Counted from the stretch's first letter, positions 205 through 47,110 are shown. The stretch is DNA of 64,000 nt from Candidatus Omnitrophota bacterium (GCA_043805735.1 JAZDHS010000004.1:583-64582), one strand, 5' to 3'. Translations and numbers: made by a program. Notes: generated by a model from the sequence alone, not told the origin.

Positions 205-954
205 ATGGCCGAGAATACGTTGCAAAAGCAAAAGGCGATAGTTATCGGGGCCAGTTCAGGGATTGGACGGGCCCTGGCCAAGGTGTTTGGAGAACACGGC
301 TACGCCGTAGGCCTGGCCGCCCGGCGCCTGGAACTTTTGCACCAGCTGCAAAAAGAGATTCCCGCCCAAACCTTTATTAAGCGTATCGATATCAGTAAGC
401 CCGAAGAAGCAATGCCGGCCTTGCGTGAACTAATCGAAGAAATGCGCGGGGCAGATGTAATTGTGATTAACTCCGGGATTAATGCGCACAATGTCAGTCT
501 GGAATGGCCGGGAGAAAACGATACGATTAAAGTTAACGTTGCCGGATTTTGCGCCATGGCCAATATTGCCCTGAAGTATTTTGAAGGCAAAGGCGCTGGC
601 CAGCTCGTCGGGATTTCTTCGATCGCGGGTTTAAGAGGCAGCGCCACCAGCCCGGCATATAGCGCTTCTAAGGCCTTTGTCTCCAATTATCTGGAGGGGT
701 TGCGCCATCGGGTCAGCGCAAAGAATATCTATATCAGCGATATCCGCCCGGGCCTGGTGGATACCGAGATGATTAAAGGTTTCTCCCGGTTATTTTGGGT
801 TGCTTCTGCCGACCAGGCCGCGCGGCAAATACTTAGGGCAATACAGCAAAAGAAAAGTATTGCTTACATTACCCGGCGTTGGCTTTTAATTGCCTGGTTG
901 CTCAAAATAATGCCTGATTGGGTGTACCGATTACGCTACAAAAATGAATTTTAG
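205..954 (+). CDS. Short-chain dehydrogenase/reductase (SDR) family oxidoreductase
   Basis: The internal Met of ORF 136..954 (MAENTLQKQKAIVIGASSGIGRALA) gives an N-terminal GxxxGxG Rossmann motif and a YxxxK catalytic region (YSASKAF). The listed ORF start at 136 overlaps the tRNA and is rejected. Confidence 0.85.
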   Translation: MAENTLQKQKAIVIGASSGIGRALAKVFGEHGYAVGLAARRLELLHQLQKEIPAQTFIKRIDISKPEEAMPALRELIEEMRGADVIVINSGINAHNVSLEWPGENDTIKVNVAGFCAMANIALKYFEGKGAGQLVGISSIAGLRGSATSPAYSASKAFVSNYLEGLRHRVSAKNIYISDIRPGLVDTEMIKGFSRLFWVASADQAARQILRAIQQKKSIAYITRRWLLIAWLLKIMPDWVYRLRYKNEF

Positions 955-963
955 CCTACGGCA

Positions 964-1245
964 ATGGAAAAAGAAAAGAAACGGATCCATGTGCATTACG
1001 ACGGAAGAGTGCAAGGCGTAGGCTTTCGATTTACGGCCGAACATCTGGCGAGAGGATTGAACCTGACCGGATGGGTTAGAAATTTGCCGGATGGAAGGGT
1101 GGAGTTGGTCGGTGAAGGCCAAGAGGTCGATTTATCCCAGGCCTTAGCTAAAATTGACCAAACCTTTGGCCGGTATATCCGGCAAAAGGATGTACAGTGG
1201 CAGTCCTACCGGGGTGAATTTTCCCATTTTGAGATCAGATCATAA
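964..1245 (+). CDS. acyP: Acylphosphatase
   Basis: 93 aa with VxGxVQGVGFR and GWVRNxxDGxVE signature motifs. Confidence 0.85.
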
Positions 1246-4494
<3,249 letters not shown>

Positions 4495-39390: not shown

Positions 39391-40527
39391 ATGTTTGATC
39401 ATTATCGCCGCGATTTTGATGTGGTCTTATTTGTCAGCCTGTTGCTTATTTTTGCGATTGGCCTGGCCTTTTTACATAGCGCCAGTTATAAACGCTATTC
39501 GACACGGGAAGAGTATCTTCAGGAAAGCCTGGTAGTAAAGCAGATGTTGCGTTTTGTCCTTGCTCTCATTGCGGGGATTCTCGTAATCAGGATCGGCCAT
39601 CAGAAATTACTTGAATTTGCCTATGTTCTATATGGTCTGAATATTTTGTTATTAGTTTTGGTCTTACTTTTGGGCGAGACCAGGTTAGGGGCGCAGCGCT
39701 GGATTAAACTGGGGATGATTGGTTTTCAGCCTTCGGAGTTCAGTAAGCTCATCATCGTGTTTACCTTGGCCCGTTATCTTGGACAGAAAGAAAGCGCTTT
39801 AGGAAGAGATTTGTTTTGGCAGGGCGGTTGGCGCAATAGCGGGGTCTTGGCCAGCGCCTTTTTGCTGGTTGGCATTCCTTTTATATTAATTATGAAACAG
39901 CCGGATTTAGGCACCGCTCTTACCCTCGTTCCCATTCTTTTGACGCTATTGTATGTCTGGGGCGTCTCTTTTAAAACCCTAGCCCTGCTTTCGTTGCCCG
40001 CGGTTTTGGCTTCGCCTTTTTTATGGCAGATGCTTAAGCCCTACCAAAAAAGAAGAATTCTGGTGTTTATTAATCCTAATGCCGATCCCTTGGGAGCGGG
40101 CTATACGATTATTCAATCGAAGATTGCGATTGGCTCAGGGGGGTTATTCGGTAAAGGGTGGCTGGCCGGAACACAAAACCAATTGAATTTTTTGCCCGAA
40201 CGCCACACCGATTTTATCTTTTCAATAGTCGGGGAAGAGTGGGGGTTTATCGGGGCGGCATTACTTTTAGTTTTATACATTGTCTTAATCTCCCGGGCTT
40301 TTTTGATTGCCCAGCGTACTCTTTATTCATCATCTCGCCTTTTAGCCTGCGGCATAATTGTCGTGTTGGTATTCCAGGTAGTGGTCAATATCGCGATGAC
40401 GATGGGCCTGGTTCCGGTGGTTGGCCTACCTTTGCCGCTGATTAGTTATGGCGGCTCATCCCTGTTTATGACTGTTGTTTCGCTGTCCTTACTCTTAAGT
40501 ATCGGGATGAGAAGGTCAGTATTCTAA
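39391..40527 (+). CDS. rodA: Peptidoglycan glycosyltransferase RodA (SEDS)
   Basis: SEDS family (FQPSEF, DFIFS) following mrdA. Confidence 0.9.
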   Translation: MFDHYRRDFDVVLFVSLLLIFAIGLAFLHSASYKRYSTREEYLQESLVVKQMLRFVLALIAGILVIRIGHQKLLEFAYVLYGLNILLLVLVLLLGETRLGAQRWIKLGMIGFQPSEFSKLIIVFTLARYLGQKESALGRDLFWQGGWRNSGVLASAFLLVGIPFILIMKQPDLGTALTLVPILLTLLYVWGVSFKTLALLSLPAVLASPFLWQMLKPYQKRRILVFINPNADPLGAGYTIIQSKIAIGSGGLFGKGWLAGTQNQLNFLPERHTDFIFSIVGEEWGFIGAALLLVLYIVLISRAFLIAQRTLYSSSRLLACGIIVVLVFQVVVNIAMTMGLVPVVGLPLPLISYGGSSLFMTVVSLSLLLSIGMRRSVF

Positions 40528-40606
40528 CATGTTTATTATTAATAGGTTATGTAAAAGATATCAACCCTAGCTATTGGTACAATGTGACAATTGGTCAGTT
40601 GTGCAC

Positions 40607-40635
40607 TTGACACTTGGTGCATTTTGTGCTATACT
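40607..40635 (+). promoter_or_regulatory. Consensus sigma70 promoter (TTGACA-17-TATACT) in the rodA-downstream intergenic region
   Basis: Perfect -35 and near-perfect -10 with 17-nt spacing, read directly from the sequence. Confidence 0.55.
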
Positions 40636-40641
40636 TCCAGT

Positions 40642-40800
40642 GTCATTGACAAAAAGTAACGTTTGAAAAAGGCAAACCATTTGTAAGAATGGGGCGCAAA
40701 GCCACAGGTCCCGTAACGTAACAGGGATAGCTGGGTTGCCAAGCGTAGACAAAGAATATCAACATCCGGCCTTTGGCTTTGCCAAAGGCCTTTTTAATTG
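40642..40800 (+). ncRNA. Candidate ~160-nt small RNA or structured 5' leader ending in an intrinsic terminator
   Basis: Predicted TSS about 7 nt after the -10. The transcript ends with hairpin GGCCTTTGGC-TTT-GCCAAAGGCC followed by TTTTT at about 40769-40800. The listed ORF start at 40736 would have to read through this terminator. Confidence 0.4.
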
Positions 40801-40816
40801 CGCAAAAGAGAAGACG

Positions 40817-41158
40817 ATGATTAAAAGACCAAACAATCCTAACGGTAATGCCCATCGCGTGATTACTTTCTTGACCCGCGATGAAATTGACTTTCTGGAT
40901 AAGATTGGCAAAGACGCCCTTTTTAGCTCCGGGATCAAACTTTCACGCAGTAAAATTATTTCCGCGATGGTTAATGTAATTCGTAAGCTCAATATTCAAG
41001 CCGATGGCCTGCATTCGAAAAAAGAGCTGGAGCATCGCATTATCGAAACGATAAAAAACCTGAATCTGACGCTGGCCGATAAATCCAAAAGGCAGCAGGA
41101 AAACAAAACGCCGCCAGCGAACGAGCATGAGGCTAAGGAACATGAACAAGCTTTTTAA
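40817..41158 (+). CDS. Hypothetical ribbon-helix-helix-like small protein
   Basis: A beta-strand-like RVITFLT followed by two helices (RDEIDFLDKIGKD, SRSKIISAMVNVIRKL) suggests a CopG/Arc-type RHH, with a charged low-complexity C-terminus. The start was moved to the Met after the terminator hairpin. Confidence 0.5.
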   Translation: MIKRPNNPNGNAHRVITFLTRDEIDFLDKIGKDALFSSGIKLSRSKIISAMVNVIRKLNIQADGLHSKKELEHRIIETIKNLNLTLADKSKRQQENKTPPANEHEAKEHEQAF

Positions 41159-42032
41159 TGCGCTTACTATGACTAATCGCGGGATACGCTATAAAATGGC
41201 CATGGCCTTCACGCTGATGTCGGTTATTCCAATGCTGGTATTTGGGTATTTATTCCTGCACTACCTTTTTCCTCGGCTATCGTCTTTTTTGCACATTTCC
41301 TTAGTATTTATTTTTACGATACTTCTAATGATCGCCGGATACTATTTTGCCAAAAAGATTGTCTATCCGGTAATTAAACTCAGCGCTCATGCCCGCGGTA
41401 TTGCCGATGGCAACTTCGATAAAAGATTAGATATGCCGCGTGATGACGAGATCGGCGAATTGGGCAGCACCTTGAATCACCTTTCCTTAAAACTAAAAGA
41501 GAATATTCGGGAAAATACTTTACTGCAGCATAAGACCAGAGAGCTTACCGTGCGCGATGAACTTACCGGTCTCTATAACGAACGCTATATCCGTGAGCGC
41601 TTAGACGAAGAGATTAAGCGGGCGGTGTCCTATCAACGTCCCTGCTGTTTTATGATGATGGAAATAAACCACTTCGTCAGTTTACGCGCAACCAGGGACG
41701 AGAAAGAAGCTGATCAGCTGCTGAAGAAGATCGCGCAAATCTTGCTGGCCGCGACTACGCCAATTGATAAAGTAGCGCGCTTAAACGAGACGCGGTTTAG
41801 CGTTATTTTTCCGGAAAAAAATAAAAAACAATGTCTGGAGGTTACCCAAAATTGCCGAAAAGATATTGCACGCTTGGTCCAAAGCACTTCCGGGTGGGCC
41901 GGATTAAGCATTAGCGCAGGCATTAGTTCGACACCTCTTGACGGAACTACTGTGGCCGAGCTCATCGACCAGGCGCTCTCTTTTATGGAAAGGGCCGGCA
42001 ATGATGGCGAAAATAGCATTATTATTTCCTAA
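41127..42032 (+). CDS. Membrane-anchored HAMP-domain protein with a degenerate GGDEF domain
   Basis: N-terminal TM segments, HAMP (VIKLSAHARGIADGNFDKRLD), then a GGDEF fold (DELTGLYNERYI...SISAGIS...ERAGNDGEN). The catalytic GG(D/E)EF is replaced by NETRF and the DxD metal site is absent. Start may be ATG 41142 or 41169. Confidence 0.75.
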   Translation: MRLRNMNKLFNALTMTNRGIRYKMAMAFTLMSVIPMLVFGYLFLHYLFPRLSSFLHISLVFIFTILLMIAGYYFAKKIVYPVIKLSAHARGIADGNFDKRLDMPRDDEIGELGSTLNHLSLKLKENIRENTLLQHKTRELTVRDELTGLYNERYIRERLDEEIKRAVSYQRPCCFMMMEINHFVSLRATRDEKEADQLLKKIAQILLAATTPIDKVARLNETRFSVIFPEKNKKQCLEVTQNCRKDIARLVQSTSGWAGLSISAGISSTPLDGTTVAELIDQALSFMERAGNDGENSIIIS

Positions 42033-42099
42033 CCGTTAGACCCCAGCTTAAAGGAGTGCTGGGTCTATCCTTTAGGATTAGGAAAAAAGGAGTATCCAT

Positions 42100-43158
42100 A
42101 TGTATGAGATGCAGAAATTACTCAGGATGGTGGTGGAGAAAACGGCGTCCGATTTACATATTACGGCTGGGGCTCCGCCGCAGTTGCGTATCGATGAAGT
42201 GCTGGTTAATGCCGGCGAACAGATCTTGATGCCCGACGATACCAAGAAACTGACCTATAGCCTTTTGGCCCAGGAAGAAATTAAGGAATTCGAGGAGAAT
42301 CTGGAATTGGATTCGTCGTTCGGAATCGAGGGCCTGAGTCGTTTTCGTCTCAATGTCTACCAGCAAAGAGAAGCGGTGGGCTGTGCGATCAGAAGAATTC
42401 CCTTTGAGATTATGACGTTGGAGCAATGCGGCTTACCGGTAAAAATAGTGACGCAGATGTGCCAAAGGACAAAAGGCCTGGTACTGGTAACCGGGGCGAC
42501 GGGAAGCGGAAAATCCACTTCGTTGGCGGGGATGATTAATAAAATTAATCAGGAAAGGCGCTGTCATATTATTACCGTAGAAGATCCGATCGAATATACC
42601 TTTAAGAATTTAAAGTCCTTAATCGAACAGCGCGAAGTCGGCAAAGATACCCATTCCTTTGGCGATTCGTTAAAACATATACTTAGACAGGATCCCGATG
42701 TCATTTTAGTAGGGGAAATGCGCGACTTAGAGACTATCCAGTCGGCGCTGAATATCGCCGAGACCGGCCACCTGGTCTTTGCGACCTTGCATACCTCCGA
42801 TGCGGTTCAGACGGTGAATAGAATCATTGATGTCTTCCCCGCCCATCAGCAGCAACAGGTGCGCACACAGCTATCGTTTGTGCTGTTGGGAATTATGGCC
42901 CAGCAGTTAATACCCCGTCCCGGCGGGGGAAGAATATTGGCAACTGAAATACTAGTGGCCAATCACGCTATTCGCAGCCTGATCCGCGAGGCCAAAACGC
43001 ACCAGGTCTATTCAGTTATTCAAACCGGTCTCAAAGAAGGAATGAGTACGATGAACCAGGCGTTATATGAACTGGTGTTACGTAATATTATTTCACAGGA
43101 CGAGGCGATGCTGCGCACTACCGAACCCAAAGACCTAGAGCGATTGTTTAAAAGCTAA
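42100..43158 (+). CDS. pilT: Type IV pilus retraction ATPase PilT
   Basis: 352 aa secretion ATPase without an N-terminal MshEN domain. Walker A GATGSGKST, Asp/His boxes, and a PilT-type C-terminus (AIRSLIREAK). Confidence 0.9.
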   Translation: MYEMQKLLRMVVEKTASDLHITAGAPPQLRIDEVLVNAGEQILMPDDTKKLTYSLLAQEEIKEFEENLELDSSFGIEGLSRFRLNVYQQREAVGCAIRRIPFEIMTLEQCGLPVKIVTQMCQRTKGLVLVTGATGSGKSTSLAGMINKINQERRCHIITVEDPIEYTFKNLKSLIEQREVGKDTHSFGDSLKHILRQDPDVILVGEMRDLETIQSALNIAETGHLVFATLHTSDAVQTVNRIIDVFPAHQQQQVRTQLSFVLLGIMAQQLIPRPGGGRILATEILVANHAIRSLIREAKTHQVYSVIQTGLKEGMSTMNQALYELVLRNIISQDEAMLRTTEPKDLERLFKS

Positions 43159-43173
43159 AGGAATAAAAAGCGT

Positions 43174-43635
43174 ATGGAAGCACGTAAAGACCCACATGCA
43201 TTTCGCGAGCAGCTCGGCGAGCTGCTCTTACAAAGAGGCGTGATTAATTCCGAGCAGCTCAAGCATGCCCTGGAGCTGCAGAGTGAGGGTAATATGCTCT
43301 TAGGGGAGATATTGTCTGAGCTTGGCTATGCCTCCGAGGAAGATATTGTCCAGGCGCTAGCGTTACAACATGATTTCCCGTATTTGCCATTGGCCAATTA
43401 TGAGGTTGAGGCGGAAATTATCAAGTTAATTCCGGAGGAATTAGCGCGTCGCTACCATATTCTACCCGTAGATAAAATGGGCGATATCTTAACCGTGGTT
43501 ACCGATAATCCGCTGGAGCGCTCATTTTTCAAAGAGATCGAAGCGCTGACAAAATGTAAAATTGAAATATTTGTCTCAACGTCTAGAGAAATCAAAGAGG
43601 CGATTGAGCGCTATTATAGCGAAAAGAAAAAGTAA
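43174..43635 (+). CDS. Standalone MshEN / T2SSE_N-domain protein (candidate c-di-GMP receptor)
   Basis: 153 aa made only of the GspE/PilB N-terminal fold. It carries a tandem 24-aa motif, QLGELLLQRGVINSEQLKHALELQ, a 5-aa spacer, then LLGEILSELGYASEEDIVQALALQ. This closely matches the published MshEN c-di-GMP-binding consensus RLGxx(L/V/I)(L/V/I)xxG(L/V/I)(L/V/I)xxxxLxxxLxxQ. Confidence 0.75.
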   Translation: MEARKDPHAFREQLGELLLQRGVINSEQLKHALELQSEGNMLLGEILSELGYASEEDIVQALALQHDFPYLPLANYEVEAEIIKLIPEELARRYHILPVDKMGDILTVVTDNPLERSFFKEIEALTKCKIEIFVSTSREIKEAIERYYSEKKK

Positions 43636-43652
43636 AAAAGGTTAAACGTACG

Positions 43653-45365
43653 ATGCCTAGATCATTAAAAGAACAATTAGTGGCTATCCTTACCGAGAAC
43701 AAACTGCTTTCCCAAACGCAGCTGGAGCAGGCGCTGAAGCTGCAAAAGGAAAAAGGGGGACGCCTGAGCAACATTCTAATATCTTTAAAATTTATTCAGG
43801 AAAAAGATTTAATGCTGGCCTTAAGCAAAAGCTTGAATATTCCTCCGATTAATTTGCAAAAGATTGAGATTAAGCCCGAGGTGATTAAAGTTATTTCTGA
43901 AAAAGTAGCCCGGCATTATCAGCTCATCCCGATTGCGAAGATGTCCAATAGCCTAACCGTAGCGGTGAGCGACCCCTTGAATATTTTCGCGCTTGACGAT
44001 ATCCGGGCGCTGACAAACTTCAAAATTAAATCGGTGCTCAGCACCGAAGAAGACATTAAACATGCGATTAATAAATATTATTCCAAGGATGCGCTAGATA
44101 TTGTCAAGGATGTAATCAAAGATAAAGAGGCAAAGATAGAGACCATTACCCAACAAGAAGCAACGGTGGATACCAAGGCGCTTCTGGAGATGATTAATGA
44201 GGCGCCGATCGTCAAGATTACCAACATGATTTTGCAGGAAGGGATTAAGAGGAAATCCAGCGATATCTTAGTTGAGCCCTTGGAAAAGACGATGCAGATA
44301 CGCTATCGTGTCGATGGTATTTTGGAGCTTGGCGAGGCTCCGCCACGGAGCATGCATGATGCCATTGTGACCAGGATTAAAGTTATGTCGCGTCTGGATG
44401 TGGCCGAACACCGCCTGCCGCAAGATGGAAGATTCAAAGTCCAGCTGCCCGGAAAAGAAGTCGATTTTCGCGTCTCCGTGCTTCCTTCGAGTTTTGGCGA
44501 AAAACTGGCCCTGCGTATTTTGGATAAGAGCACGCTGATGTTAGACGTCGATAAGTTGGGGCTGGAAGAACAACCGCTCTCAGTGCTGAAAAAATGCGCC
44601 CAGCGTCCACATGGGATGATTTTAGTTTGCGGCCCGACCGGCTGTGGCAAAACCACGACCCTTTATTCTGTGCTTAAATACATTGATTCTATTGAGGATA
44701 ACTTAGTAACCGTAGAAGATCCGATCGAATATCTTTTGGATGGAATCAACCAGGTAACGGCCGCTCCGGAAATCGGGCTGACCTTTGCCGCGGCGCTGCG
44801 TTCTATTTTACGCCAGGACCCGGATATTATCATGGTCGGAGAAATCCGAGATTTTGAAACTGTCGATATCGCGATTAAGGCCGCGCTGACCGGCCATTTG
44901 GTCTTAAGCACCTTGCATACTACCGATGCGCCGGGATCGCTGGTGCGCCTGGCGAATATGGGTGTGGAACCGTTTTTGATTACCGCGTCCTGTCTGATGG
45001 TGGGCGCGCAGCGGTTAGTCCGCGTGCTTTGTCCGGAATGCAAGGAAACATATCTGGCAGTGCCGGAGCTAAAGAAAAAGTTGGGAATAAAAAACGACAA
45101 AGAAATTACTTTCACCCGGCCCAAAGGCTGTGCTAAATGCGGCAACAGCGGTTACAAGGGCCGCATTGCCATCATGGAGTCATTGGAGATTACCGCTCAG
45201 ATTAAGGAGTTGATTTTACAGAAAGCTCCCGAGGCACATATCAAGAATGCTGCCCGCAAGGAAGGTATGCGCACGCTGCGGGAGAATGGTTTGGCGATAG
45301 CAATGAAAGGAATTACATCAGTCGAAGAAGTGCTCAGGGTTACCGCTACGGACGAAGAGATATAA
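43653..45365 (+). CDS. pilB: Type IV pilus assembly ATPase PilB/GspE family (paralogue 1)
   Basis: 570 aa with an N-terminal T2SSE_N-like domain, Walker A GPTGCGKTTT, tetracysteine CPEC...CAKC, and Asp/His boxes. Confidence 0.9.
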   Translation: MPRSLKEQLVAILTENKLLSQTQLEQALKLQKEKGGRLSNILISLKFIQEKDLMLALSKSLNIPPINLQKIEIKPEVIKVISEKVARHYQLIPIAKMSNSLTVAVSDPLNIFALDDIRALTNFKIKSVLSTEEDIKHAINKYYSKDALDIVKDVIKDKEAKIETITQQEATVDTKALLEMINEAPIVKITNMILQEGIKRKSSDILVEPLEKTMQIRYRVDGILELGEAPPRSMHDAIVTRIKVMSRLDVAEHRLPQDGRFKVQLPGKEVDFRVSVLPSSFGEKLALRILDKSTLMLDVDKLGLEEQPLSVLKKCAQRPHGMILVCGPTGCGKTTTLYSVLKYIDSIEDNLVTVEDPIEYLLDGINQVTAAPEIGLTFAAALRSILRQDPDIIMVGEIRDFETVDIAIKAALTGHLVLSTLHTTDAPGSLVRLANMGVEPFLITASCLMVGAQRLVRVLCPECKETYLAVPELKKKLGIKNDKEITFTRPKGCAKCGNSGYKGRIAIMESLEITAQIKELILQKAPEAHIKNAARKEGMRTLRENGLAIAMKGITSVEEVLRVTATDEEI

Positions 45366-45379
45366 TAATCGGGTTTTGC

Positions 45380-47110
45380 GTGGAGGTTGAAACTAAAGTG
45401 CCCAGGCTTTTGACGTTAAAAAAGAAGCTCAATGAGATCCTGCTGGAAAATAAATTAATCAGCGCCAAGGACCTTGAAAAAGCCCTAAGTATCCAGAAGG
45501 AAAAAGGGGGGCAGTTGAGCAAGATTCTTGTTGAGCAGAAAATGATTTCCCAACAGGATTTGATGGTTTGCCTGGGTACACAGCTGGGAGTGCCGCCAAT
45601 CAATCTGGCCAGGTATAAAATCGATCCCGAAGTAGTTAAATTCATCCCCGAACGTATTGCCCGCCATTATATGGTCATACCAATATCCAAAATTAAGAAT
45701 GTGATTAGCGTGGCCATGGCCGATCCGTTGAATATTTACGCCTTAGACGATATCAAGGTCTTAACTAAATTAGAGGTCCAGACGGTCATTACTACGCCCG
45801 ACGATATTATGCAGGCAATTGACAAATATTATAAGGGTAAAATACAAGATATGGCCGATATTATCCAAAAGGCGCAGGAAACGGTGGAACTGCAGACTGT
45901 GGAAGAAGGGCCAATGCCGGGCGATATTGAAGAGCTGACTAAGGCCAGTGGAGAGGCGCCGTTGATTCAATTAGTCAATGTCGTGATTCACGAGGCCATC
46001 AAAAGTCGGGCCAGCGATATTCATATTGAACCGTTTCAGGAGCGCGTGCGTATCCGCTACCGTATTGACGGAATCTTGCATGATTCCTTTAACTTCCCCA
46101 CGAAAATCAAAAATGCCTTACTTACACGGATAAAAATTATGTCTAATTTAGACATCACCCAAAGACGTATTCCCCAGGACGGCCGGTTTAAAGTGAAGGT
46201 CGAAAATAAAGAAGTCGATTTCCGCGTCTCGGTGCTGCCTACCGCTTTCGGCGGAAAAATTGTGCTTCGGGCTCTAGATAAAGCCAACCTATCTATCGGT
46301 CTGGACCAATTAGGATTTTCAGCGCACACTTTAGTTAAATTTAAGGAAGCAATTGCTAAACCCTACGGCATGATGCTACTCACTGGGCCTACCGGTTGCG
46401 GTAAGTCCACTACCCTTTATTCCATTCTCAACCAGCTTAATTCCAACGATCGCAATATCGTTACTATTGAAGACCCAATAGAATATCAGGTGGAGCGGAT
46501 TACCCAAATTGCGGTCAAGCCCGAGATCGGCTTAACCTTTGCCAGCGGATTGCGCTCAATATTGCGCCAGAGTCCGGATGTAATCATGGTCGGTGAGATC
46601 CGCGACGGTGAAACCGCCGATATCGCCATTAAGGCGTCGCTGACCGGAGAACTAGTGTTGAGCACGCTGCATACCAACGATGCGGCTTCGGCAATTACCC
46701 GGCTGATCGATATGGGCGTGGAACCGTTTTTAATTGCCTCGTCCGTAATTATGGTGGCCGCGCAGCGGCTTTGCCGGCGGGTTTGCCCGCATTGTAAAGA
46801 GCCTTACGAGGTCGCCAAGTCCGTTCTGGATAGCCTGGAAATTTCCGCCCAAAAAAATACACTGTTTTATCATGGTAAAGGCTGCCCCCATTGCAATCAT
46901 ACCGGCTACTATGGACGGATGGGGACATTGGAGATTTTAACTGTTGACGACGCGATCAGAGAAATGATTATTAAGGGGGCCTCAAGCACACATATTAAAG
47001 ACTATGCCCGTAAGCACGGCATGAGGACGCTGCGTGAAAACGGTCTGGAAAAATTTATACAAGGCGAAACAACGCTGGAAGAAGTCTTGCGGATGACCGC
47101 TGAGGAATAA
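45380..47110 (+). CDS. pilB: Type IV pilus assembly ATPase PilB/GspE family (paralogue 2)
   Basis: 576 aa with the same architecture (GPTGCGKSTT; CPHC...CPHC). Its N-domain resembles that of paralogue 1. The start is GTG 45380 or GTG 45398 after GGAGG. Confidence 0.9.
   Translation: MEVETKVPRLLTLKKKLNEILLENKLISAKDLEKALSIQKEKGGQLSKILVEQKMISQQDLMVCLGTQLGVPPINLARYKIDPEVVKFIPERIARHYMVIPISKIKNVISVAMADPLNIYALDDIKVLTKLEVQTVITTPDDIMQAIDKYYKGKIQDMADIIQKAQETVELQTVEEGPMPGDIEELTKASGEAPLIQLVNVVIHEAIKSRASDIHIEPFQERVRIRYRIDGILHDSFNFPTKIKNALLTRIKIMSNLDITQRRIPQDGRFKVKVENKEVDFRVSVLPTAFGGKIVLRALDKANLSIGLDQLGFSAHTLVKFKEAIAKPYGMMLLTGPTGCGKSTTLYSILNQLNSNDRNIVTIEDPIEYQVERITQIAVKPEIGLTFASGLRSILRQSPDVIMVGEIRDGETADIAIKASLTGELVLSTLHTNDAASAITRLIDMGVEPFLIASSVIMVAAQRLCRRVCPHCKEPYEVAKSVLDSLEISAQKNTLFYHGKGCPHCNHTGYYGRMGTLEILTVDDAIREMIIKGASSTHIKDYARKHGMRTLRENGLEKFIQGETTLEEVLRMTAEE

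Follow-up and report, generated by a model that had tools for sequence, protein, structure and literature searches.

We have found that the DNA analysed here, a stretch of 64,000 nucleotides from a Candidatus Omnitrophota bacterium that we refer to as the window, contains what is very probably an operon leader with a canonical c-di-GMP-I riboswitch, for which we propose the role of a termination OFF switch. For annotation, an apparently orphan non-coding unit would thereby be resolved as a c-di-GMP riboswitch. In the mechanism that we propose, in which the start of transcription, ligand binding and the direction of switching are predicted, transcription would begin at about position 40642, at a strong and conserved sigma-70-type promoter, and the nascent RNA would fold into an aptamer (40659-40746) with its ligand pocket at G40671, A40698 and C40739. 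If no ligand is bound, an antiterminator would form while RNA polymerase is on the U-tract, and read-through would reach a gene for a 113-aa protein, a gene for a degenerate GGDEF protein and type IV pilus genes; if c-di-GMP is bound, the core would be locked in the aptamer, the terminator hairpin would form and an RNA of about 155 nt would be released. High c-di-GMP would most likely stop transcription of the small conserved gene and of the type IV pilus operon, and our findings indicate that uncultured Omnitrophota use c-di-GMP to gate the transcription of such an operon.

Class and fold of the leader RNA

The class of this RNA, its fold, the identity of its pocket, its promoter, its terminator and their conservation were all observed. 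Scanning the whole window against Rfam yielded two matches above the gathering score, one to the leader aptamer and the other to a tRNA-Pro. The leader matches RF03167 (c-di-GMP-I-GGC) at 40662-40744 on the + strand with 69.5 bits (E 2e-14; gathering score 59), over the full length of the model (positions 1-80 of 80), and the match was repeated in a permissive local scan. The Rfam scan reports only the best model per clan, the 69.5 bits being the score on RF03167, and as judged by this match the leader RNA is a member of the GEMM-I/c-di-GMP-I clan, CL00126. The tRNA-Pro (CGG), at 107-184 of the window, is the only other match in the window with either Rfam or ARAGORN.

An earlier note on this DNA had proposed that the unit is either an independent sRNA or an attenuator or riboswitch, and had suggested an Rfam scan and covariation analysis as checks. 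The first of these gave the full-length clan match above the gathering score and the second, described below, supports the aptamer fold, so that the riboswitch half of the proposal is upheld by both, whereas linkage in cis to one gene family counts against the independent sRNA.

A genome scan with an alignment of the family of 113-aa proteins encoded downstream of the leader returned 80 loci, nearly all of them in Omnitrophota MAGs, with some records labelled Planctomycetia. Of the first 20 loci, 16 have a CL00126 aptamer 5' of the gene according to Rfam, and 11 sequences from those loci were used to build a covariance model of our own, on which the Rfam structure was imposed because the default RNAalifold consensus mis-paired the GGC of columns 15-17 with the GCC of columns 93-95 instead of forming P1a. 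The window scores 87.3 bits with this model.

Including P1, the aptamer spans 40659-40746 (+), as placed by Rfam, by our covariance model and by the minimum-free-energy fold, in which it is present. P1 pairs 40659-40665 with 40740-40746 (7 bp). The first hairpin (P1a/P1b; 40672-40697, +), placed by the Rfam structure line and by covariation, is closed by G40672-C40697 and C40673-G40696, continues in a stem that pairs 40677-40682 with 40687-40692, and is capped at 40683-40686 by a GUAA tetraloop; this loop is of the GNRA type, which in c-di-GMP-I riboswitches docks into the second hairpin; a GNRA loop is found in 63 of 86 aligned rows, and all six P1b pairs show double changes. The second hairpin (P2, called P3 in some papers; 40700-40737, +), placed by the Rfam alignment and by covariation, has a bulged A40704 and an internal A40729-G40730 and shows double changes in 10 of its 12 pairs. 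The bulged C40695 is the equivalent of C44 in the Vc2 riboswitch, and G40730 is the equivalent of its interhelical partner, G83. Both residues are invariant in the 11-sequence alignment, and the interhelical Watson-Crick pair between C44 and G83 of Vc2 is universally conserved (PMC4744006).

Across 84 distinct sequences, 97.1% of the cells are paired and 19 of the 22 pairs show double (compensatory) changes, in an alignment that was fitted to the covariance model and leans towards the imposed structure. When the partners are moved by 1-3 columns, only 29-46% of the cells are paired, and none of 500 shuffles reaches the observed value. An independent run of MAFFT and RNAalifold recovered both hairpins, with 13 covarying pairs.

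We note that P1b carries insertions of about 20 to 100 nt in six close relatives (L001, L002, L004, L006, L007 and L008; columns ~205-300 of alignment A5, and in L007 also ~318-377), while the window has the minimal, GUAA-capped form. In L006 and L007 these insertions split the covariance-model matches into two pieces that mimic tandem aptamers.

Terminator, antiterminator and direction of switching

The earlier note had described a 10-bp GC-rich hairpin followed by T5, and this is found as an intrinsic terminator at 40768-40795 (+; sequence scan). Its stem, GGCCTTTGGC/GCCAAAGGCC, pairs 40768-40777 with 40781-40790 (10 bp, 7 of them G-C pairs; hairpin -17.3 kcal/mol) around a UUU loop (TTT in the DNA), and the U-tract, TTTTT, follows at 40791-40795. 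The terminator begins 21 nt past P1 and has no nucleotides in common with the aptamer; the two are not mutually exclusive, since both are present in the minimum-free-energy structure of the full-length RNA. A terminator, taken as a hairpin with a U-run, is present between the aptamer and the start codon in 72 of 78 leaders (77 loci and the window), so that the family is, as a rule, controlled by transcription termination.

The competing structure involves a switching sequence inside the aptamer (40696-40710, +), made up of the 3' strand of P1a, the residues equivalent to A47 and A48 of Vc2 and the 5' strand of P2, which forms the 5' strand of a predicted antiterminator. In this helix 40696-40704 pairs with 40774-40782 (9 bp) and 40706-40710 with 40768-40772 (5 bp), and its 3' strand, 40768-40782, consists of the terminator 5' half, the loop and the first 2 nt of the 3' half. 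In the Boltzmann ensemble the antiterminator prevails (probability about 0.8, with P1 at 0.00) only for transcripts ending at 40782-40786, ends that likely correspond to the RNA outside the polymerase while the polymerase is on the U-tract; from 40788 onward the ensemble flips, and the terminator reaches 0.96-1.00. Shuffled versions of 40768-40782 disrupt P2 as much in only 10 of 200 cases. Another candidate, the first that we considered for the antiterminator, paired GCCAAG (40738-40743) with CUUUGGC; it was weak and was replaced by the pairing of 40696-40710 with 40768-40782.

Because the ligand would lock 40696-40710 in the aptamer and thus free the terminator 5' half for hairpin formation, this is the architecture of an OFF switch, and we think it reasonably likely, from these modelled folds, that the element is a kinetic OFF switch, with termination brought about by c-di-GMP. 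At equilibrium without ligand, the full-length RNA favours aptamer plus terminator (-48.3 versus -43.4 kcal/mol), so that an OFF switch would work only within a narrow kinetic window.

Relatives carry traces of the same competition. In 24 of 63 loci, against an expectation of about 3, complementarity to the aptamer is greater for the terminator 5' half than for shuffles of it (p<=0.05), and in 43 of 63 loci it exceeds that of the 3' half. Appending the terminator 5' half lowers the aptamer pair probability to 0.49, compared with 0.55 for shuffles (Wilcoxon p=0.006). The antiterminator partners also covary: the window has AGCCA/UGGCU where L003 has AACCA/UGGUU, and distant loci have the pairs GCUGGGGCG/GCCCUGGC, GCCGGGGC/CCCCGGCG and GGGUAGGGC/CCCUAUUC. 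This family-wide signal is modest and uneven, and it is missing from one clade, of which L041, L054 and L056 are examples, whose terminator directly adjoins the aptamer. Terminators lie 3-10 nt past the aptamer in L012, L041, L043, L054, L056, L064, L075 and L078; the terminators of the clade that abuts P1 are of the CGCCUGGAGG type, and adding their 5' half does not lower aptamer pairing relative to shuffles. The logic of the expression platform in this clade may differ from that in the window.

It is in this light that the opposite direction has to be weighed, in which the same c-di-GMP-I riboswitch is an ON switch, c-di-GMP prevents termination and the pilus operon is induced by the ligand. 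We consider this unlikely. The separation of the terminator hairpin (40768-40790) from the aptamer by 21 nt, with nothing shared, and the coexistence of both in the minimum-free-energy structure speak against it, as does the fact that the only strong alternative helix joins the terminator 5' half to the aptamer core, which is an OFF architecture. An ON switch would nevertheless agree with the common promotion of type IV pilus function by c-di-GMP in other bacteria and with the MshEN-domain ATPases encoded in the operon, and the abutting terminators of some relatives, with no antiterminator signal, suggest that platform logic may vary.

Ligand pocket and specificity

Three residues of Vc2, G20, A47 and C92, contact c-di-GMP (PMC4744006; PMC11218506). 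Their equivalents in the window are G40671, A40698 and C40739 (all +), the first of which stands at the position that contacts one guanine of the ligand, and the pocket, as aligned to Vc2, is the canonical c-di-GMP signature. The same signature, G-A-C, is found in 74 of 86 aptamer matches, and the equivalent of A47 is A in every row that has a base there and G in 0 of 86.

Read from three Rfam consensus lines (RF01051, ...aGGC...CGC-AA-AgCc...U-gC-Cgaa; RF03167, CGC-GA-A; RF03168, aaU-gC ... GU-GU-C), the names of the variants stand for the bases at the equivalents of Vc2 positions 20, 47 and 92. The GGC variant (RF03167), whose consensus has G at the A47 equivalent, was rejected, as the window reads CGC-AA-A with A40698; the UAU variant (RF03168) requires U at both 20 and 92, where the window has G40671 and C40739; and the c-AMP-GMP type (GEMM-Ib) requires A at position 20, again occupied by G40671. 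At the level of sequence, then, the element has every testable feature of a c-di-GMP-I riboswitch and lacks the defining feature of each named variant.

From a comparison of two consensus lines, we attribute the higher score of RF03167 over RF01051 to the second hairpin of the window, which is short and lacks the receptor extension (CUAAgg...cuAuG), and to the GUAA tetraloop at the end of the first hairpin. The choice between the two models is not diagnostic, since in the relative L015 they give 64.0 and 58.1 bits. Relatives matched to RF01051 score 35-64 bits, the gathering score being 35. As the pocket is canonical, the automatic Rfam label of 'GGC variant' is misleading.

That the aptamer is nonetheless a specificity variant, whether GGC-type, cGAMP-type or other, and binds a ligand other than c-di-GMP, appears very improbable. 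The best Rfam model is indeed the one named for the GGC variant, and among the relatives two, L019:3785-3874 and L060:3858-3932, and only these, have A at the position-20 equivalent (signature A-A-C), as cGAMP riboswitches do; A at position 20 is the change that turns GEMM-I to c-AMP-GMP specificity in Geobacter. The window itself, however, has A rather than G at 47, G rather than A or U at 20, and C at 92, and the preference for RF03167 is put down to the short P2 and the GUAA loop.

Conservation of the leader and its promoter

With our covariance model, we find the aptamer upstream of, and co-oriented with, a homologue of the 113-aa gene in 77 of 80 loci, and one of the three loci without an aptamer is cut by a contig end. 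A homologue search with the protein itself returned 88 homologues, and all those with a source name are from Candidatus Omnitrophota. The family is essentially confined to this phylum and almost always preceded by the riboswitch. Riboswitch and 113-aa gene are paired in 77 of 80 species-level genomes; the pairing has two or more unrelated genomic settings and in some genomes occurs more than once. Further matches to the GEMM-I aptamer lie 3' of the small gene in two loci (L071:4242-4336 and L040:5506-5652; 64 and 36 bits), from which we suggest that the regulon includes additional riboswitch-controlled units nearby.

This distribution bears on whether the element might instead be an independent, trans-acting sRNA of about 155 nt, ligand-sensing or otherwise. 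The unit does have its own strong promoter and strong terminator, and in a few bacteria terminated riboswitch leaders act in trans. We regard this as very improbable: the element lies directly 5' of a single gene family in those 77 loci, what the locus alignment shows to be conserved is the aptamer and the switching platform, with no extra conserved single-stranded seed, and the Rfam scan returned no sRNA family match.

The sigma-70-type promoter lies at 40607-40635 (+; consensus scan, 11 of 12 positions matching), with a -35 element, TTGACA, at 40607-40612, a spacer of 17 nt and a -10 element, TATACT, at 40630-40635 (sequence scan), the latter extended by TG at 40627-40628 (TGc-TATACT). Counting both strands, the 64 kb of the window contain 4 promoter-like sites of >=11/12, compared with 0.7 +/- 0.9 in the first-order Markov simulations of the window that served as background. 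The TTGACA-17-TATACT promoter that the earlier note had described is present, rare by the measure of these simulations and conserved. All eight syntenic loci from other Omnitrophota genomes keep the promoter, including TGTGCTATACT (alignment A5), and these loci, which share the synteny of the window, retain it near base-for-base as CTTGACA...TTTTGTGCTATACTT, while their neighbouring proteins are just 54-84% identical to those of the window. The near-identity of the promoter where neighbouring proteins have diverged argues for a functional promoter and for a leader that begins about 20 nt 5' of the aptamer. Placed from the position of the -10 element, transcription is predicted to start near 40642, which would give a terminated RNA of about 155 nt, close to the length of about 160 nt that the earlier note had estimated.

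We note two further features of this region. In L001-L007 a palindrome, TGTCAA-C-TTGACA, lies about 10 nt upstream of, and overlaps, the -35 hexamer (columns ~118-135 of alignment A5); the window reads GTGCAC-TTGACA at this site and is without a perfect palindrome. In the relatives the palindrome may serve as an operator, through which the small protein perhaps regulates its own gene. In addition, rodA ends at 40527, and from there to the leader promoter (40528-40606) the scan picked up nothing resembling a terminator, so that transcription of the mrdA-rodA operon may continue into the leader, where its transcripts may come under the control of this terminator too.

An ORF scan found no credible ORF between promoter and terminator, in agreement with the earlier note, and the sole ORF that crosses the hairpin, which that note had also seen, arises by extending the downstream gene in the 5' direction to a TTG start (40736-41158). 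The real start of this gene is the ATG at 40817, where 23 of 24 aligned homologues begin, and coding through the hairpin was rejected on the strength of this Met. A conserved coding frame across the region in homologues, which would have told against the non-coding reading, was looked for in the homologue and locus alignments, and no homologue begins 5' of the hairpin in a conserved frame. Chance promoter-like and terminator-like motifs, which consensus scans do find near background rates in the region, or an unrecognised small coding region, are an explanation of negligible probability, refuted by the Rfam match (E 2e-14), the covariation, the linkage in 77 of 80 loci, the promoter kept in eight loci, and a locus alignment with large indels in the hairpin loops and no conserved upstream frame.

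Relation to known riboswitches

The prototype of the class, Vc2 of Vibrio cholerae (c-di-GMP-I, RF01051, CL00126), has the same three-helix architecture as the window RNA, the same interhelical C-G pair, a GNRA-capped first hairpin and the same ligand-contact nucleotides (G20/A47/C92, corresponding to G40671/A40698/C40739), and riboswitches of this type are likewise associated with genes for c-di-GMP signalling, motility or pili. The window differs from Vc2 in its short second hairpin, which is without the 11-nt GAAA-receptor extension, in its GUAA tetraloop, in its expression platform, which is an intrinsic terminator, and in its host, an uncultured Omnitrophota bacterium. The RF03167 GGC variant, as the top Rfam model, shares with the window the short second hairpin and the overall sequence, but its defining G at the A47 equivalent is absent, and the element should not be filed under that name.

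Cd1, a c-di-GMP-I riboswitch upstream of the flagellar flgB operon of Clostridioides difficile, combines a class I aptamer with a separate intrinsic terminator, and c-di-GMP promotes premature termination (OFF) of this surface-appendage operon. The window shares the class I aptamer and the separate terminator, and its OFF direction is predicted. It differs in that its operon encodes type IV pili and a small protein, not flagella, and in that its antiterminator would use the aptamer core (A47/A48 and the P2 5' strand) and not only the 3' strand of P1. The c-AMP-GMP (GEMM-Ib) riboswitches of Geobacter have the same fold, belong to the same clan and in some cases are linked to pilus genes, and the examples described are ON switches; they have A at position 20, in contrast to G40671. 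The c-di-GMP-II leader of pilA1 in C. difficile also senses c-di-GMP, controls type IV pilus genes and has a terminator, but it is an ON switch whose class II aptamer fold is unrelated to that of the window.

The window RNA thus represents a known class in a poorly studied phylum, recognisable by standard tools, and leaves knowledge of the c-di-GMP riboswitch mechanism unchanged. A literature search on Omnitrophota, c-di-GMP and riboswitches turned up only papers on ComFB. Three points deserve to be retained: that the variant label misleads, that the kinetic antiterminator is well defined, and that the riboswitch is coupled, across the phylum, to a small protein. Only the last of these, the link to a so far uncharacterised protein, is fresh.

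The 113-aa protein and the downstream operon

The first gene predicted to be regulated, at 40817-41158 (+), was placed by homologue search and start alignment and encodes the 113-aa protein. The earlier note had labelled this product RHH. The protein has no Pfam match at E<=0.01, 25 members of its family gave no RHH family match at E<=10, a profile search found no PDB match, and Foldseek found no match against PDB at E<=0.001. An AF2 monomer (pLDDT 70) has helices at residues 21-35, 44-57 and 68-95, and a modelled strand-helix-helix at residues 14-57 is compatible with an RHH fold; beyond this compatible pattern the label found no backing.

The co-oriented genes further downstream (41127-47110, +), presumed from Pfam matches and synteny to form one operon, encode a protein with HAMP and degenerate GGDEF domains (41127-42032), PilT (42100-43158), an MshEN-only protein of 153 aa (43174-43635) and two adjacent, paralogous PilB-like ATPases, each with MshEN and T2SSE domains (43653-45365 and 45380-47110; 570 and 576 aa), all on the + strand and identified with Pfam; PilC, two pilins and PilM come after the ATPases. 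The GGDEF gene named in the earlier note is therefore present, as a HAMP-GGDEF protein found by Pfam, but its signature is degenerate: NETRF stands where GG(D/E)EF is expected, EIN where a DxD-type metal site would be, and TPID where the RxxD I-site would be. The orthologous GGDEF domains of syntenic loci are degenerate as well (SDHQF, SESQF, AGNEI and GGNAF), and the protein is probably not a cyclase and likely to be non-catalytic. The operon encodes GGDEF and MshEN domains, as found by Pfam, a context that speaks for a c-di-GMP riboswitch. It is a point against the OFF direction that c-di-GMP often activates type IV pili and MshEN ATPases, since repression of their operon by c-di-GMP at the RNA level would then be an incoherent arrangement.

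The order PBP2-RodA-riboswitch-113aa-GGDEF-PilT-MshEN-PilB is kept in about 17 loci. In the other loci, about 60, the riboswitch and the small gene stand in different contexts, and it is therefore the small protein, not the pilus genes, that is the consistent target of the riboswitch. We suggest, tentatively, that the riboswitch and the 113-aa gene form a phylum-wide Omnitrophota module in which the small, unannotated protein is a hitherto unrecognised regulator or an effector of the c-di-GMP pathway. If so, the dosage of the small protein would be set directly by c-di-GMP at the RNA level, and a relay from riboswitch to regulator would control pili and other surface functions in ultra-small, possibly host-dependent bacteria. 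As the most consistent target, and one restricted to the phylum, the protein is a reasonable candidate for follow-up.

In a frequent second context the riboswitch and the small gene are flanked by a protein of about 1,080 aa on one side and, on the other, by a convergent one of about 960 aa with a pilus-N domain. The former, which is without a Pfam match, is encoded upstream of the riboswitch in L014, L016, L019, L021, L036, L038 and L060 (ORFs at about 300-3600 of these loci, + strand); an ORF of about 100 aa, also without a Pfam match, follows the small gene; and the convergent protein has TPR, T2SS-T3SS_pil_N and SdrD_B domains. Lastly, in the operon of the window, the N-terminus of the MshEN-only protein reads QLGELLLQRGVINSEQLKHALELQ, then SEGNM, then LLGEILSELGYASEEDIVQALALQ, an arrangement that we take to resemble the tandem 24-residue c-di-GMP-binding motif of MshEN domains, with its 5-residue spacer.
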